From an uncultured Alphaproteobacteria bacterium (GTDB lineage Bacteria > Pseudomonadota > Alphaproteobacteria > Rhizobiales > Beijerinckiaceae), in the NCBI GenBank assembly GCA_963835215.1, contig CAWIES010000004.1:371121-435120 (forward strand): 64,000 nucleotides of DNA. The letters run 5' to 3'. A model generated the notes under the pieces. That model was not told the origin of the DNA, did no database searches, and saw nothing but the letters and a program-made list of their open reading frames with translations. Shown piece after piece: positions 5,624 through 13,350 of this stretch. Every line of letters begins with the position of its first letter. The first letter of the stretch is position 1. The translations under genes were made by a program, and so were the position numbers.

Positions 5624-6927
5624 GTGAAGCCCTCTCAGGCAAGCGGCGCGCCGGCGCGCTTCTGCCGCGACTGCCTCGAGGCATGCGATGAGGCGGGGAC
5701 ACGTTGCGCGCGCTGCGGCTCGCCGCGCCTGATCGCCGACGCCGGCCCAGAACTGACGATCGCCCATGTCGATTGCGACGCGTTCTATGCGGCGGTCGAA
5801 AAGCGCGACCGGCCCGAACTTGCCGATCAGCCGCTGATCGTTGGCGGCGGGGGACGGCGCGGCGTCGTCTCGACCTGCTGCTATCTCGCGCGCACTTATG
5901 GCGTGCGCTCGGCGATGCCGACCGGTCAGGCGCTGAAGCTGTGCCCGGCGGCGATCGTCCTGCCGCCCGACATGGCCAAATATGCCCGCGTCAGCCGCGC
6001 GATCCGCGAACGCATGGGTCGCCTGACGCCCTTGGTCGAGCCGCTGTCGATCGACGAGGCCTTCCTCGATCTGACCGGCTGCGAAGGCGCCAACGGCGCG
6101 CGGCGCGGCGCTGACGCTCGCGCGCTTTGCCCGCGAGGTCGAACGCGAGCTTGGCGTCACCGTCTCGATCGGCCTCAGTTACTGCAAGTTTCTCGCGAAG
6201 CTTGCCTCCGATCTCGACAAGCCGCGCGGCTTCTCGATCATCACACGCGCGGGCGCGCGCGCGCAGCTGGCGCCGATGAGCGTCGGGCGATTGTGGGGCG
6301 TCGGCAAGGTCGCCGAGGCGCGGCTCGTGACGGCTCGGCATGCGCACCATTGGCGATCTGCAAAAGCTCGACGAGCAGGGCGCCGTGGCGAAGCTCGGCG
6401 AGGAGGGCCGCCGCCTTTGGCGCCTGGCGAATGGCGTCGACAATCGGCGCGTGTCGCCCGAGCGCGAGACCAAAAGCATTTCGAGCGAGACGACATTCGA
6501 GACCGACGTCGCCGATCTTGCCGAACTGACGCGCGTGGTGCTCGTCCAGTGCGAGCGGGTGGCGGCGCGGCTTGGCAAGGCGGGGCTCTCGGCGCGGGCG
6601 CTGACGCTCAAGCTGCGCACGCCCGACTTTCGCCTGCACACGCGCTCGCGCTCAGGCTTCGATGCGACGCAGATGGCGCTGCGCCTTTTCGCCACCGCGC
6701 GCGCCTTGTTGGAGGCGGAGCCAGCGGGGCAGGCCTATCGCCTGATTGGCGTTGGAGCGGGCGATCTTGCGCCGGCGGGCGAAGCGGACGCCGCCAATCT
6801 CATCGAGGGCGACCGCAGTCGCGAGAAGGCGCGCGAAGCGGCGATCACAACTTTACGCGATCGCTTCGGCGCGGCCGCCGTCCAGCGCGGCCTCGCGTAT
6901 CGGCCGGGCGGCACGCGAGCGCGGTAG
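5624..6927 (+). CDS. dinB: DNA polymerase IV (at least 2 apparent frameshifts, probably sequence errors)
   Basis: N-terminal CRDC/CARC Zn motif, [26 protein letters not shown] and KSISSETTF, spread over ORFs 5624-6529, 6276-7007 and 6340-6927. Confidence 0.92.
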
Positions 6928-6934
6928 GGCTGCG

Positions 6935-7766
6935 TTACTTCGCGCAAACCGGCGTCGGCATCAGGTCTAGCCGCTTGAGCTTGGCGGAGAGCGCGAACGT
7001 GCCGTAGTCGAGCTTCAGCGTGCCCGAGACGCCGTTTTCGTAGAGATCGAAGCTGAGAATGTATTCGGGCGGCGCCTCGCGGTCGTTCTCGTCGAAATAG
7101 GAGACGGTGACCGGCCAGCGGCGGATATTGCCGAGCGTGCTGGCGAAGTCGGCGTCGGGGGTCGGCGTCGTCGCCTCCTTGCCGATGACGGTCAAGGTCT
7201 GGAACACCTTCTTGCCGGTGTCGGAGCCGTCATAGACGCGCGCCTCCATCGGCCCGCCGCCCTCTTTGGCGCGCGCGATGATGCGCTCGATGTGTTCGGT
7301 CGGAAACAGGATGTCCTTGCCGATGTCCATCGTCGAGGCCGCCGGCTTGCTCAGCGCAACCGTGGTGTCGCCGCTGTCGGCGCGGCTCGCCGAGCCGGCG
7401 ATCGGCGCCGCGTCGCCACCCTCCAGCGTCGAGTTCGATCTGGAAGCGCATCCGCTTGGCCTCGCCATCCTCGAAGGTGACGGCGTGAATGTCCGAAGAG
7501 ACCGGATCGCCTTCGCTACGCTGCAACTGCGTGAACTGGCGGAAGTTCGAATCGTAGCCCTCGCAGCGCGAGCCCGAGAATTCATAGGCAATCAGGCCGC
7601 TCGCCGAGACCGGCGCCTGCGAGCCCCCGTGCGGCGCGCCATAGTCGTCGATCATCGTGATCTCGTAGGCGGCCCGGTGCGGCGCGAGCGGCATCACGAC
7701 ATCGGCGCGCGCGGCGACCACGCTCGCCGCTAGAGCTGCCGCCGAGACGAGGATGCGACCCATCAT
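6935..7766 (-). CDS. eipB: Cell envelope integrity protein EipB (DUF1849), frameshift near 7430
   Basis: Signal peptide, [50 protein letters not shown], terminal Cys. Confidence 0.85.
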
Positions 7767-7856
7767 GAGAGACTCTCCGGCCGGCCCGAGATCATTTCAT
7801 GAGCGCCGACGTCTCGTTGTCACCAAGCTTTCCGGCGGATTCGTGGCCAAGACAGC

Positions 7857-8549
7857 TCACGGCTCGTCGGCTTCGCCGATCGGTCCCCAGACCTGTTCGA
7901 GCGCACGTCGGCGCTTCGAGCGGCTCTTCGTCGGGGCGCAGGCTCGCGTCATCGTCCGGCTGGGGCACGCCGAAGCCCGGCGGCAGTTTGCCGTCGAACA
8001 GGCCCGCGCCTTGCAATTCGTCGAGGCCGGGCAGGTCGCCGATCGCATCGAGGCCGAAATGGACTGAGGAATTCCAGGCTCGTGCCATAGGTGATCGGCC
8101 GGCCCGGCGATTTGCGGCGCCCGCGCATGCGCACCCAGCCCGCCTCCATCAGCACGTCGAGCGCGCCTTTGGAGACGGCGACGCCGCGGATTTCCTCGAT
8201 GTCGGCGCGCGTCACCGGCTGGTGATAGGCGATGATCGCCAGCGTCTCGATCGCCGCGCGCGACAGTTTGCGCTTGTCCTGCGTCTTCGCGCGCCAGCAG
8301 CCAGGCAAGATCGGGCGCGGTGCGAAACGTCCAGCGCCCCGCGACGCGCACCAGGTTGACGCCGCGCTCGCTATAGACGCGCTGCAATTCGGCCATCACC
8401 GCGGCGACGTCGGCGCCTTCCGGCAGGCGTGCGGCGATCGTCGCCTCATCGAGCGGCTCGGCGGCGGCGAACACCAGCGCCTCGGCGATGCGCAGGTCCT
8501 CCGGGGCGAAACGCGGCGGCGCGTCGGTCGTCAAACAATTTGGCGACAT
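7857..8549 (-). CDS. scpB: SMC-Scp complex subunit ScpB (several apparent indels)
   Basis: EALVFAAAEPL, RKLSRAAIETLAIIAYHQPVTRADIEEIRGV, GRPITYGT and HFGLDAIGDLPGLDEL across three frames. Confidence 0.9.
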   Translation of the reverse strand: MSPNCLTTDAPPRFAPEDLRIAEALVFAAAEPLDEATIAARLPEGADVAAVMAELQRVYSERGVNLVRVAGRWTFRTAPDLAWLLAREDAGQAQTVARGDRDAGDHRLSPAGDARRHRGNPRRRRLQRRARRADGGGLGAHARAPQIAGPADHLWHEPGIPQSISASMRSATCPASTNCKARACSTANCRRASACPSRTMTRACAPTKSRSKRRRALEQVWGPIGEADEP

Positions 8550-8555
8550 TTCCCA

Positions 8556-9376
8556 TCATTGGCGTCTCAGCTCGATTGCGCTTGCGGCGTCGGCGAGCCG
8601 GGCGCGCGCCACAGATCGGCGCGAAGGCCGCGTCTTGCCGGAGTTCGATCTTTCCTTCGCGCACCAGTTCGAGCGAGGCGGAAAAGGACGATGCGCGCGC
8701 CGTGCGGCGCAACTTCGGATCGACGCAATAGTCGATCAGCCAGAATCGAGATCGGTCCAGTCCGACGTCCCGCCGAGCAGCCGCGTCAGCGCTTCGCGCG
8801 CCTCCGCCAGCGACCAGACCGCGCGCGGCTGCATGCGCACCCGGGCGCGCGCGTGCTTCTGGCTCTGGCGCGCGTAGGCCGACAGGAGATCATAGAGCGT
8901 CGCCTCGAACACCGGCGTGCTGGCGACTTGCGACCGCCTCGGGCTCGCCGCGGGCAAAAATGTCACGCCCGAGGCGCGGCCGGTTGATCAGCGCAGCGCC
9001 GGCGCGCCGGATCTGCCTCCAGCCGGCGCAGGCGCTGCGCGAGCGCGTCGGCAAGCTCCGCCGCGTCCCCGCTCTTCCGGCCTTCGGCGGCGCGGGCAGC
9101 AGCAGGCGCGATTTCAGATAGGCGAGCCAGGCGGCCATCACCAGATAATCGGCGGCGAGCTTCCAGCCGCAGCTTACGGGCCGCCTCGACGAAGGCGAGA
9201 TATTGCTCGGCGAGCGCAAGGACGGAAATGCGCGCCAGATCGACCTTCTGGCGGCGCGCGAGCTCAAGCAGCAGGTCGAGCGGCCCCTCGAACCCGTCGA
9301 GATCGACGGTGAAGGCAGGCTCGCCCTCGGCGCGCTCGACTTGGAAATCGTCTGCAAATGCGCCGACGCCGGCCAC
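8556..9376 (-). CDS. scpA: Segregation/condensation protein ScpA (several apparent indels; ends approximate)
   Basis: FEGPLDLLLELARRQKVDL, LAADYLVMAAWLAYLKSRLLLP, ASSFSASLELVREG. Confidence 0.9.
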
Positions 9377-9912: not shown

Positions 9913-10612
9913 TCAGTAGCGGCGCAGCAGACTGATCATGCGGCCCTGGATGCGCACCCGGTCGGGGCCGAAGATGCGGGTCTCGTAGGCGGGATTGGCG
10001 GCCTCCAGCGCGACCGAAGCGCCGCGTTTGCGCAGGCGCTTGAGCGTCGCCTCTTCCTCGTCGATCAGCGCCACGACGATGTCGCCGGTCTCGGCGGTGT
10101 CCTGCTTGCGAATGATGATCGTGTCGTTCTCGAAGATGCCGGCGTCGACCATCGAGTCGCCGCGCACTTCGAGCGCGAAATGCTCGCCCGGCCCGAGAAA
10201 ATCCGGCGGCATCGCGATCGTGTCGGTGCGGGTCTGGATCGCTTCGATCGGCGTGCCCGCCGCGATGCGGCCCATCATCGGGATCATCGCGATCGGCGGC
10301 AGCGCCTCGGCGCCGGCTGCGCGGCCTGACCCGGCCGAGATTGCCGGCAATGACGCTCGGCGAGAATTTCTGCGCGCGCGGCGCGCCAACCGTCGCCGAT
10401 TCGGGCAGGCGCAGCACCTCGATGGCGCGGGCGCGATTGGCGAGGCGGCGAATGAAGCCGCGCTCCTCCAGCGCCATGATCAGACGATGGATGCCCGACT
10501 TCGAGCGCAGATCGAGCGCGTCCTTCATTTCGTCGAAAGAGGGCGGAACCCCGTCGTTCTGCAGGCGCTCGTGAATGAAGCGCAGCAGCTCGCTTTGCTT
10601 TCGTGTCAGCAT
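9913..10612 (-). CDS. lexA: SOS repressor LexA (apparent frameshift near 10320)
   Basis: [10 protein letters not shown]...[23 protein letters not shown]; cleavage site GRIAAG; VRGDSM; EATLKR. Confidence 0.96.
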
Positions 10613-10685
10613 ATCAGGCTCCCAACCGCCCAGCGCGAATCAACGGCTCGCTCACGGGCGAAGCGGAGAATCGCGGGCTAGGCGT

Positions 10686-10727
10686 AAACAAATCACGAAC
10701 AGATGCGTATCTGTTCGCGCTGTGTTC
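10686..10727. promoter_or_regulatory. Tandem alphaproteobacterial LexA (SOS) boxes
   Basis: GTTC-gcgctgt-GTTC at 10713-10727 and AAAC-aaatcac-GAAC at 10686-10700, upstream of lexA. The inner halves also form the palindrome GAACAGAT-N4-ATCTGTTC. Confidence 0.85.
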
Positions 10728-10790
10728 CGCAAGGGGGAGGCCGAACATATCCCCTTGCGACATGTACGGGGAATCGTGCTACAAAAAGGC

Positions 10791-11916
10791 ATGGAGATCA
10801 TCCCGCGCATCGCACACTGGCGACGCGTCGCCGGCAGGGCGTGGCGTTTTCTCTACGCTGCGCCGATGGCGGCTCTCAGCGCGTTCGTTTTTGTGCGGGA
10901 CGAATTTCTGTCGCCGGAGCGCGCCGCAAGTCTCAAACTTCCTGCGCTATTTTCGGACTATCTGCCCGGCTGGCTGTTGAACATGCCCTGGTATGGCTGG
11001 GCTCTCGCTTCGCTCGTAGTCGTGATTTTTGTTGTGCTCGAAGGATCGTACCGCGCTTATCGAGAAGGACTCGGCCAACCGAGGGGTGCCTTCTGCGCCT
11101 GCTGAAGTGGCCGATATGGCGGTCCAAGACGTGTTTTTTTACAAGGACGCCGACGTTTTGGAAAACGCTACATTCGCCACCGTTGGGCAAGAAATTCTAG
11201 ACGCATTATCTCTTGGCAAATTGAAAGGATATGGGCGACAGGCGAGCATTTTAAATCGCGGTTATGTAGGGCATCCCAACTTAGCCCCGATAGATCAATC
11301 CTATTGGCGGACCGCCGCCTTCACTTATGAGTATTTTGGCGACGGCGATCGTACACACGACTTTCATGTCGAGACGAGACCGCCGGCAAACGGGGCTGCA
11401 TATAGGGACGTCCGCTTCGACGGCGCTGCGGTCAAAGCCCTCTGGCCCAAGTCTACGGCATCCCCACAGATATTCGCCATGAAGGCGGCTTATCTAATCC
11501 TGACCCAGAGCGAGTGGGCCAGAAGCCTAGCTATCAGGCCTGATTCTATGGTCGCAGGATGGTACGAGGATATGGTCTCCAAGAAGGAAGCAATCAAAAG
11601 GAGATTGCTCAAAGCCCTTGAGAGGGACCTTCACGACAATCTGAGAGCTGGCCGTGTCGCGGCGTGGGGACGCGTCGACCGGCATTCCCCCTTAGCGCCA
11701 ATTGCCGCAGAAGAGTGGAGCGATATCAAACTGTCCATGGAAGAAGTTGATTTCAAAAACCTCAGCACCGGGTTTTGCATCAATTTCACGGTGCCGGCGG
11801 CGTACAGAAAAACAGTGTACCAAGACGTGAAATTTTCAAAGGAGACTGTCTTTAAGCAGTATCCTCTCCTGCCAGAGCCTTTCGGGATTGATGATGGCGA
11901 TCAAAAAATTACCTGA
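10791..11916 (+). CDS. Hypothetical membrane-anchored passenger protein with an internally duplicated domain; probably one gene with a 1-nt indel near 11055
   Basis: ORF 10791-11105 has two hydrophobic segments and overlaps ORF 11029-11916. Removing one base gives ...VLEGSYR-LIEKDSANRG.... Confidence 0.65.
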
Positions 11917-12097
11917 CGATCCGCACCCGGAAGCCGAAGAGAGATTTCGTCGCCTCCTGCGTTCGATGGTCAGCGCGCCGCCACCTGAGCCGGACGCGAA
12001 AACGCAATCAGAAGAATCTCAAACATCAAATGCGGAGAACGGCGAAGATTGTGGCGATATTCAAACTCCGCCAGATACTTCGGAAGATGCTTCTTAG
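11888..12097 (+). CDS. Small hypothetical protein inside the IS (69 aa)
   Basis: Starts within the 3' end of the passenger; EAEERFRRLLRSMVSAPP helix; its 3' part is antisense to the transposase. Confidence 0.35.
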   Translation: MMMAIKKLPDDPHPEAEERFRRLLRSMVSAPPPEPDAKTQSEESQTSNAENGEDCGDIQTPPDTSEDAS

Positions 12098-12869
12098 AGA
12101 CGTGAATGTAAGTGCCGTTGACGCCGCGCTTTAGCATCGCCCAGAACGACTCAATCGTGTTCGTGTGAGCGTCGCCGCGAACGTACTCGTAGGCGGAATG
12201 GTTCACGCTCTCATGGCCGAAGCCGAGAATGTCGAGCCCGCGATAGACGGTCGCGTCATCTGTCATAACGCGCGAGCCTTCGACAACCCAACGCTTCACC
12301 TGCGGCAAGATTTGATTGGTGTGGCGCCCCGCGATCTGGCGCGTGACGAGATCGCCGTCACGCTCGACCATGCCGAGTACGACCGCTTTGTCATCATGTC
12401 CTGCGCGATCATGTCCGCCGAGAAAGGCTTCGTCGATTTCAACGACCGGGGCCTTTTGGCCCGCTCCGCCTAAAGGGCGGTCACCATCGACCCTGCCCAT
12501 GTGCTCGCGGATTTTGTGGCACATGCGCCAAGCAGTCTTATAGGTCACGCCGATCTGGCGCTGAACCTCTTTCGCGGCCACGCCGTTGCGGGACGACGTG
12601 AAGAGGAACATCACAAAAAACCAATCGGTCAGCCGCGTCCGCGTGTTTTCAAAGGGCGTGTCGGCGGTCGGATAGACCTGATAGCCGCAATGCTCGCACT
12701 CAAAGCAGCGGCGGAGCTTGACACGGTAGAACCGCCCCTCCGCTTGGCAATTCGAGCAAACGAGGCGCTGGCCGTAGCGCACCCGCATCAAGTGATCGAG
12801 GCAAACGTCCTCGTTCGGGAAGCGAGCCTGAAACTGTTTGAGGGTCGTGATCTTCGGTGATTTGCTCAT
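11970..12869 (-). CDS. IS1595-family (ISXO2-like DDE) transposase with N-terminal Zn ribbon
   Basis: CSNC..CEHC, GVTYKTAWRM, VEIDEAFLGG, VMTDD, VNHS..EYVRGDAHTNTIESFW, KHLPKYLAEFEYRHN. Confidence 0.95.
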   Translation of the reverse strand: MSKSPKITTLKQFQARFPNEDVCLDHLMRVRYGQRLVCSNCQAEGRFYRVKLRRCFECEHCGYQVYPTADTPFENTRTRLTDWFFVMFLFTSSRNGVAAKEVQRQIGVTYKTAWRMCHKIREHMGRVDGDRPLGGAGQKAPVVEIDEAFLGGHDRAGHDDKAVVLGMVERDGDLVTRQIAGRHTNQILPQVKRWVVEGSRVMTDDATVYRGLDILGFGHESVNHSAYEYVRGDAHTNTIESFWAMLKRGVNGTYIHVSKKHLPKYLAEFEYRHNLRRSPHLMFEILLIAFSRPAQVAAR

Positions 12870-12929
12870 GCCGATTTTATATCAGGTTTCGACGTACATG
12901 TCTAGAGGGGATAAGGCCGGGGGCGGCTC

Positions 12930-13350
12930 GACCCTCTGTCGAGCGCGGTCGTTCGGCTCGTTTTTTCCGTGCGAACGCGACCACCATCGCCGAGTTTGAG
13001 CCCGTCATTCCGCCGCATGTCACGCGCGAGGCGCAGATCATGACCGACCAAGTCGCTTGGTATCCCGAAATTGGCACCGAGTTCACCACCACGACAGCGT
13101 GAACCACGCCAGGGACGCATATACGCGTCACGAAGACGGCACGCTCGTTACAATCAACGCCGGCGAGGGCTTCTATTTTATCATTAGGCGCGGCATGAAG
13201 GGCGTCTAGCAACAGTGCAGGCAAAAGCGCTTGCATCGCTATCTGGGCGAGTACGATTTCCGCTACTCGAACCGCTCAAAATTCGGCGTTGAAAACGCTG
13301 AGCGCACGTTCAAGGATTGCTGCTGGCATCACGGGAAGGCGATTGGCGCA
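12930..13350 (+). pseudogene. Decayed C-terminal half of a second IS1595-family transposase
   Basis: Reads VERGRSARFF...EAQIMTDQ...VNHARDAY...INAGEGFYFIIRRGMKGV*QQC...LHRYLGEYDFRYSNR, with a frameshift and an in-frame TAG. Confidence 0.8.

Follow-up and report, generated by a model that had tools for sequence, protein, structure and literature searches.

An IS1595-family transporter insertion sequence upstream of lexA with mirrored, promoter-like ends and a putative exchangeable cargo slot

The 64,000-nucleotide (nt) stretch analyzed here, referred to throughout as the window, comes from contig CAWIES010000004.1 of an uncultured member of the Beijerinckiaceae (Alphaproteobacteria). Upstream of its lexA gene it carries a complete insertion sequence (IS) of the IS1595 family, belonging to the passenger-carrying type called transporter IS (tIS). 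Between its inverted repeats (IRs) lie a transposase gene and, converging on it, a passenger or "cargo" gene and a small open reading frame (ORF), orfC, while a host LexA box of the lexA promoter lies just outside (Table 1). The element is present as a single copy in its own genome (3.7 Mb, 4 contigs). An initial annotation of the window had recognized the tIS and proposed that its two ends are mirror images, each combining a promoter with a start codon, the end distal to the transposase acting as an expression slot for captured cargo. We followed this up using about 55 relatives of the element, drawn from genome contigs, metagenome contigs and an order-wide genome search.

Table 1. Coordinates of the element, its parts and the adjoining host site in the window
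Feature	Position	Strand	Remarks
Whole IS1595-family transporter IS	10742..12919	+ (cargo strand)	2178 bp; IRs, 8-bp duplication register, single copy
Distal (cargo-side) IR	10742..10793	+	6-nt tip, TATCCCC core, GCGACA -35-like 10757-10762, TGcTACAAA extended -10-like 10777-10785, cargo ATG 10791-10793
Transposase-side IR	12867..12919	-	TAGACA 12904-12899, N17, TGaTATAAA 12884-12876, N6, ATG 12869-12867
Cargo gene, ~370-aa membrane protein	10791..11916	+	Fused homologues, tblastn frame switch; frameshift near 11070-11085
orfC	11891..12097	+	Overlaps cargo 3' end; last 128 nt antisense to transposase 3' end
IS1595-family DDE transposase, N-terminal zinc ribbon	11970..12869	-	299 amino acids (aa); PF12762, PF12760, NF033547
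Left target-duplication copy GGGGAGGC	10734..10741	.	Matches right copy at 7/8
Right target-duplication copy GGGGCGGC	12920..12927	.	Register as in relatives
Host LexA box GTTC-N7-GTTC of lexA promoter	10713..10727	.	6 nt from duplication; outside IS

The transposase matched PF12762 (2.6e-37, profile positions 5-153 of 153), PF12760 (1.3e-10) and the full length of profile NF033547 (1.1e-56; 192 bits against a cut-off of 75). The defining features of the IS1595 family that were examined are present, i.e., an ISXO2-like DDE domain with a zinc ribbon, IRs of 46-47 nt and an 8-bp duplication, and so is that which defines a transporter IS, since cargo and orfC lie within the duplications both here and in the ~55 relatives, at many sites. 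Within the family the element is ISNwi1-like. The ISNwi1 subgroup of ISfinder is marked by a DDEK signature and, toward the C terminus, by an E/R pair with a spacing of four residues; the window transposase fits, containing NTIESFWAMLK (K follows E after seven residues) and EFEYR (E and R at a distance of four). The ends of the subgroup have the form GGnnATTAT. Tips of this kind occur in many relatives (GGGAATTATCCCC, GGCATATATCCCC), and the window's own tips, CGAACATAT and CGGCCTTAT, fit only loosely. The transposase has roughly 7,400 relatives, and a search of a plasmid collection returned only distant IS1595 transposases.

Offsets within the IRs take the T of TATCCCC as their first position. 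The sequence of the left end (10748-10793) is TATCCCCTTGCGACATGTACGGGGAATCGTGCTACAAAAAGGC-ATG, and that of the right end, read on the minus strand (12913-12867), is TATCCCCTCTAGACATGTACGTCGAAACCTGATATAAAATCGGC-ATG. An inverted-repeat search returned arms of 46 nt at 10741-10786 and 12875-12920 that were 74% complementary, and when the two ends were aligned they matched at 18 of 21 columns in the core and 18 of 26 beyond it, i.e., 36 of 47. The match in the subterminal part (offsets 22-47) outscored 20,000 of 20,000 shuffles, and all but one of 18,280 25-mers from the window. Both ends share xxGACA-N17-TGnTAnAAA with an ATG 5-6 nt further on, one ATG belonging to the transposase and the other to the cargo; TATAAA occupies 12881-12876 at the right end, and 5 nt separate TACAAA from the ATG at 10791 at the left end. 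Judged by eye, TAGACA-N17-TATAAA and GCGACA-N17-TACAAA, with TGn before each -10-like hexamer, would fit promoters of the extended -10 type. At both ends only 5-6 nt lie between the -10-like box and the ATG, and a Shine-Dalgarno sequence at a usable distance is lacking.

This layout recurs among the relatives. The transposase ATG lies at offset 43-45 in 32 elements, directly behind a box with the consensus TGTGnnATAcAAT. In 18 of 51 elements the cargo ORF begins with an ATG at offset 43-46 (exactly 45 in 11), preceded by TGTGGTAT; these cases, drawn from about a dozen lineages, are not independent of one another. The remaining cargo starts are scattered over offsets 15-159, and a Shine-Dalgarno sequence precedes several of those with longer leaders. 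Where the cargo begins further in, the distal end has no ATG at 43-46, which ties the distal ATG to the cargo; the repeat itself does not require it. Distant relatives (e.g., L110) have TTGACG at offsets 8-13, then N17, TATATT at 31-36, a leader with a Shine-Dalgarno sequence and an ATG at 52-63. The promoter reading is anchored by these canonical -35 and -10 hexamers, because they occupy the same IR offsets. Across the clade, the putative -35 sits in the IR core and the putative -10 in the subterminal box, and in the branch to which the window element belongs the start codon has shifted to where transcription is predicted to begin. Thus, the symmetry beyond the 21-bp core and the promoter-like strings with their coordinates, as described in the initial annotation, were reproduced, and its two expectations for homologous elements, i.e., that they would keep the extended symmetry and that different passenger ORFs would start at the same offset from the repeat, were borne out at the level of sequence.

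The distal IR also marks one edge of a region in which even close elements differ. By blastn such elements aligned only from IS position 1 to 42-50, just past the distal -10 box, and again from a point ~7 nt ahead of orfC through to the opposite end. This was observed in pairs with backbone identities of 91% (L030/L035), 92% (L024/L026), 89% (L024/L032), 87% (L023/L042) and 77% (the window element and that of G017, a relative in the same genus; locus L003, L022 being the same record). In the last pair backbone homology ends at ~10796, and the nearest metagenomic relatives, L054 and L055 (transposases 90% and 84% identical at the protein level), lose similarity at the start of orfC. The cargo proteins of 55 elements formed 37 similarity clusters. 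Cargo was shared by 3 of the 9 pairs with transposase identities of 90% or more, by 5 of the 28 pairs at 75-90% and by none of the 94 at 65-75%, and some cargo types cross distant transposase lineages (L026/L047, which share a two-gene cassette, and G017/L043). The slot of L036 holds an N6/N4 DNA methylase. A relative that appeared to lack cargo, L061, was rejected, its GGGGATA 215 nt past the transposase being a chance motif inside a cargo ORF. From these alignments the existence of a defined cargo slot seems to us very probable, and on the evidence here its contents appear to be exchangeable between elements. The fixed offset, the sharp junctions and the 37 cargo types all argue that the end distal to the transposase serves as an expression slot for cargo, as originally proposed.

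The other edge of the slot is formed by orfC. Nearly every relative has an ORF of 50-70 aa in the same place, with the core DDPxxRFDxLLxAM and, in most cases, an overlap of 1-20 nt with the cargo stop codon. The pattern DDPxxRFxxLLxxM was found in at least 41 of 55 elements, and in distant members MSRGKxLSLEEARK..RFCKEHP precedes the core. In the conserved core there were 117 substitutions at third codon positions compared with 72 and 54 at the other two, and 73 of 161 changed codons were synonymous, so that orfC behaves as a protein-coding sequence. A profile search found 182 relatives, all labeled "hypothetical" and nearly all on contigs of 0.5-3 kb, and none of the 182 had a Pfam domain. 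Translation of orfC is always linked to that of the cargo, and part of the ORF runs antisense to the transposase gene; its distribution marks it as a backbone gene of the lineage.

We interpret the element as having a mirrored, inward-facing expression layout with an exchangeable cargo slot, and put the probability that this explains the whole arrangement at about 70%. The backbone consists of the transposase-side IR, the transposase, orfC and the distal IR, with the slot between the distal IR and orfC. Each IR contains, in mirror image, a -35-like hexamer in its core, an extended -10-like box at offsets 30-38 and a start codon at 43-46. The transposase-side end would fire inward to yield a leaderless or near-leaderless transposase mRNA, and the distal end would fire inward to yield a cargo-orfC operon mRNA, convergent with, and antisense to, the 3' end of the transposase gene. 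Because the boxes lie within repeats that are presumably bound by the transposase, its binding would be expected to co-regulate both ends. The comparisons themselves establish the anatomy and boundaries of the element, the retention of the mirrored layout, the replacement of cargo at sharp junctions, the coding signature of orfC and the association with LexA boxes. Promoter activity and leaderless starts at both IRs are predictions from motif content and spacing; similarly, we infer antisense regulation, regulation by the transposase, a mechanism of cargo exchange and recognition of LexA boxes (see below).

Several observations weigh against this interpretation. A strict scan of 10600-13000 for sigma-70 promoters (near-consensus hexamers, 16-18 nt apart) returned none, because the last T is missing from both TATAAA and TACAAA. 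In two thirds of the elements the cargo ORF starts outside offsets 43-46, and the counts from relatives are not phylogenetically independent. The best -10 hexamer of several relatives (TACAAT, 33-38) would place the transcription start 1-2 nt downstream of the A in the ATG, and "leaderless" may be only an approximate description; the G-rich stretches that immediately precede some cargo ATGs might instead serve as very short leaders. Most cargos are proteins with an N-terminal transmembrane (TM) segment whose first dozen residues are loosely similar, and their diversity may be due in part to divergence and domain shuffling within one old accessory gene, rather than capture of foreign genes. Finally, the window copy may be inactive, given that it is single, has an imperfect duplication and carries a frameshifted cargo gene.

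The promoter half of the interpretation competes with the idea, which we regard as unlikely, that the long symmetry reflects only a 47-bp transposase-binding site that each end needs. The promoter-like boxes and the distal ATG would then be by-products, and the cargo would be expressed from its own signals or silent. This would explain why the subterminal boxes are kept even where the cargo ORF starts 57-117 nt in, and is consistent with the negative result of the strict scan. However, an ATG is present at 43-46 only where a long cargo ORF begins there, and 18 cargo ORFs, from ~12 lineages, do so; moreover, the interval from the IR to those ATGs is too short to hold a further promoter, and in distant relatives the canonical -35 and -10 lie at matching IR offsets. 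The two roles of the IR do not exclude each other, and the boxes may be transposase-binding sites as well as promoters, or solely such sites.

The second half, cargo exchange, would be unnecessary if no capture had occurred and the membrane-protein gene were an ancestral accessory gene evolving extremely fast with domain shuffling, which we consider slightly less likely still. The N-terminal TM segments and similar first residues of most cargos are what it would predict, as are similarity clusters that span distant transposase lineages (e.g., G017/L043) and the recombination of N- and C-terminal modules (P0121-P0123 versus P0124-P0125). On the other hand, backbones that are 83-92% identical in nucleotide sequence enclose cargos with no detectable similarity in either DNA or protein, with abrupt breaks between the two, and clearly different genes, such as the L036 methylase and the L026/L047 two-gene cassette, occupy the slot.

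The duplications show whether the cargo is part of the mobile unit. The G017 element (1965 bp, with a 47-nt IR of like design and a transposase region 76% identical to that of the window at the DNA level) has a perfect 8-bp duplication, GAGATTCC, that begins 6 nt outside TATCCCC. When this register was applied to 55 relatives, it gave perfect 8-bp duplications in most (~35 perfect cases), in elements spanning 1.6-2.7 kb and always with cargo enclosed. With the termini placed 6 nt outside TATCCCC, the window element runs from 10742 to 12919 and not, as first annotated, from 10743 to 12918. Similarly, the flanking direct repeat, first reported as 10 bp with 8 of 10 positions identical, is present as an 8-bp repeat with 7 of 8, while the assignment to family and transporter type stands. 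Because the duplication register encloses 10742-12919, the passenger genes lie inside the mobile unit, as the initial annotation had supposed. The contrary idea, that the IS comprises the transposase only and that the left IR arose by chance or is a relic, could appeal to the lack of an exact empty site alignable on both sides (no genus relative has matching DNA upstream of lexA), but is effectively refuted by the duplication flanking the 2178-bp unit, by those in matching register around cargo in the ~35 relatives, and by conservation of the lexA-side flank among genus relatives, which ends exactly at the duplication.

The cargo gene of the window copy is interrupted. Its first part, orfA (10791-11105), encodes an N-terminal module with two hydrophobic segments, identified by eye from the translation, and orfB (ATG at 11116, stop at 11916, with the frame open from 11029) encodes a C-terminal domain in the +1 frame. 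Homologues of orfB are 333-375 aa long, two of them (P0124, P0125) begin with an orfA-like module, and alignment of the homologues to the element by tblastn showed a frame switch between ~11070 and 11085; orfA and orfB therefore represent one gene, for a predicted two-TM protein of ~370 aa, split by a frameshift. The neighboring lexA gene (9913-10612, minus strand) is likewise split into two frames, with LexA_DNA_bind at 10330-10612, Peptidase_S24 at 9916-10389 and a break near 10308-10334 that reflects either a pseudogene or an assembly indel, so that assembly indels are as likely as real decay to account for the frameshift in the cargo. In G017, the cargo ORF (L003 458-1375) is out of frame with the IR-embedded ATG (469) over its first ~35 codons, possibly another indel, in a metagenome-assembled genome (MAG) from the same project. 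The initial annotation had overlooked the frameshift, as it had the conserved third ORF, the N-terminal TM type of most cargos and the LexA-box target.

Neither orfA, orfB nor the cargos of nine relatives had a match in Pfam, NCBIfam or PADLOC, except for the DNA methylase in L036, and a search of the ESM Atlas for clues to cargo function returned unnamed clusters only. An AlphaFold2 model of the C-terminal domain (predicted local distance difference test score 74) had no Foldseek match at E<=0.001 and no fold match in the PDB; winged-helix-like structural neighbors of the domain (best VIA Z 3.4) matched only in scattered pieces and were not trusted.

The position of the element next to a LexA box is part of a wider pattern. 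In a scan of 107 flanks, 13 exact GTTC-N7-GTTC or GAAC-N7-GAAC boxes ended 12-16 nt from the IS tip and six with one mismatch ended 14-17 nt from it, against a background of ~0.0004 per position. The exact boxes, which 13 relatives and the window copy adjoin, follow one arrangement, i.e., box, spacer of 4-8 nt, 8-bp duplication, IS. The loci at LexA boxes are the window, L022-L024, L026, L028, L032, L044, L060, L066, L102, L103, L105, L112 and L121; the cargo end points toward the box in ~14 cases and away from it in 5. As expected for an alphaproteobacterial SOS operator, the box in the window lies upstream of a lexA gene (LexA_DNA_bind, Peptidase_S24), and genus relatives, L014 among them, have the same box with no IS beside it. 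Searches by tblastn with LexA found the element immediately next to lexA, on its upstream side, in L023, L024, L026, L032 (Methylocystis rosea SV97, NZ_KB889963.1, whose transposase ORF looks shortened), L044 and L105, and other boxes with an element lie away from lexA, upstream of recA (L121), uvrD (L102) and a few other genes.

The elements of the window and of G017 lie within 1 nt of each other in the lexA promoter; a single ancestral insertion was rejected as their origin in view of their opposite orientations and different duplications. Three Methylocystis species have the element at one and the same lexA site, with three different cargos, and their duplications (ACATATGG, ACATTTGG, ACATATGA) differ between species and are identical within each genome, which indicates that these insertions were independent. 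One explanation, that the -35 region of lexA attracts the IS through its resemblance to the IR core (CCCCTTGCG), was discarded, since the boxes at recA, uvrD and other genes have no such similarity. In L049 (6277-6360), from a gammaproteobacterial MAG, a lexA homologue with an E. coli-type CTGT-N8-ACAG box follows the element at a distance of 82 nt, and 17 nt separate box and duplication, compared with 4-8 nt in alphaproteobacteria.

Some further observations concern the sites themselves. The DNA upstream of lexA in the window looks like a landing pad for ISs; just past the right end of the element, at 13090-13275 on the plus strand, is a degraded C-terminal fragment of a second IS1595-family transposase, 34% identical and with an internal stop. 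In L042, a second element of ~2.4 kb (~6420-8840), with IRs GGCGATTATGCACTTGACTTAGC and its own short duplication (CACCCCTT-like), has since inserted into the interval that separates the IS1595 element from the lexA operator box. In sphingomonad relatives (L038-L041, L046, L048, L067, L071, L072), the element is inserted in the loops of perfect palindromes, e.g., ACCCTGAAC-CAA-GTTCAGGGT, the duplication being the loop. In this sub-branch the target preference looks like one for repetitive extragenic palindromes or hairpins, and not for LexA boxes.

If the mirrored layout with its cargo slot is combined with the choice of target, the element might be viewed as a single-slot gene-delivery device with a repeat-embedded, probably transposase-controlled leaderless promoter, whose cargos are swapped at two junctions and which homes to LexA operators, perhaps via LexA-bound DNA. 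A large pool of hypervariable membrane proteins would then be linked to SOS control regions in alphaproteobacteria. We offer this broader picture tentatively, as a possibility that we think somewhat doubtful. The literature searched, which was thin, contained nothing relevant on IR-embedded dual promoters or on targeting of LexA boxes by ISs.

Passenger-carrying ISs blur the line between IS and transposon, and the expression and exchange of their cargos have hardly been studied. If the promoters are real, the element would represent a compact, portable expression platform, and a model for a transposase that co-regulates both itself and its cargo. Insertion at a fixed spacing from LexA boxes (at lexA, recA and uvrD) makes the choice of target testable, and raises the question of whether SOS regulation and the elements influence each other. 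The cargo pool, with dozens of unrelated orphan membrane proteins, is unexplored.

The transporter IS concept of the IS1595 family is that of Siguier, Gagnevin & Chandler (2009, Res Microbiol 160:232), as cited in PMC3129680. The present element resembles tISs of the ISNwi1 type in its ISXO2-like DDE domain and zinc ribbon, 8-bp duplication, IR tips containing TAT, unrelated passengers and size of ~1.7-2.7 kb; it differs in features of which we found no description, i.e., a mirrored distal IR, a small ORF closing the slot, sharp junctions and fixed spacing from LexA boxes. A second comparison is with IS1, whose family Siguier and colleagues are said to relate to IS1595. Work by Machida and Machida in 1989 and by Zerbib and colleagues in 1990 reportedly placed the IS1 promoter in the left IR and found that InsA binds the ends. 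Both elements thus have the transposase promoter (putative in our case) within a terminal repeat, so that end-binding proteins can regulate expression, but IS1 is not known to carry cargo and its other end is not described as a second inward expression site.

The attI/Pc platform of integrons provides a functional analogy only, in that a fixed promoter at a recombination boundary expresses interchangeable genes lacking promoters. LexA boxes are listed in the integrase promoters of integrons (PMC8876359), and a link to LexA control exists in many of them. Unlike integrons, however, the element described here has no integrase, attC sites or cassette array, but one slot inside a DDE transposon. 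For targeting, the nearest published parallel is the IS1202 subgroup, whose members abut XerCD sites (bioRxiv 10.1101/2022.12.17.520857). There too, an IS lineage is found repeatedly at a fixed distance from the site of a host DNA-binding protein, although the transposase belongs to another family and the site is that of XerCD, not LexA. Set against these systems, the mirrored expression layout, the cargo slot with two junctions, the conserved micro-ORF and the homing to LexA boxes appear to be new.

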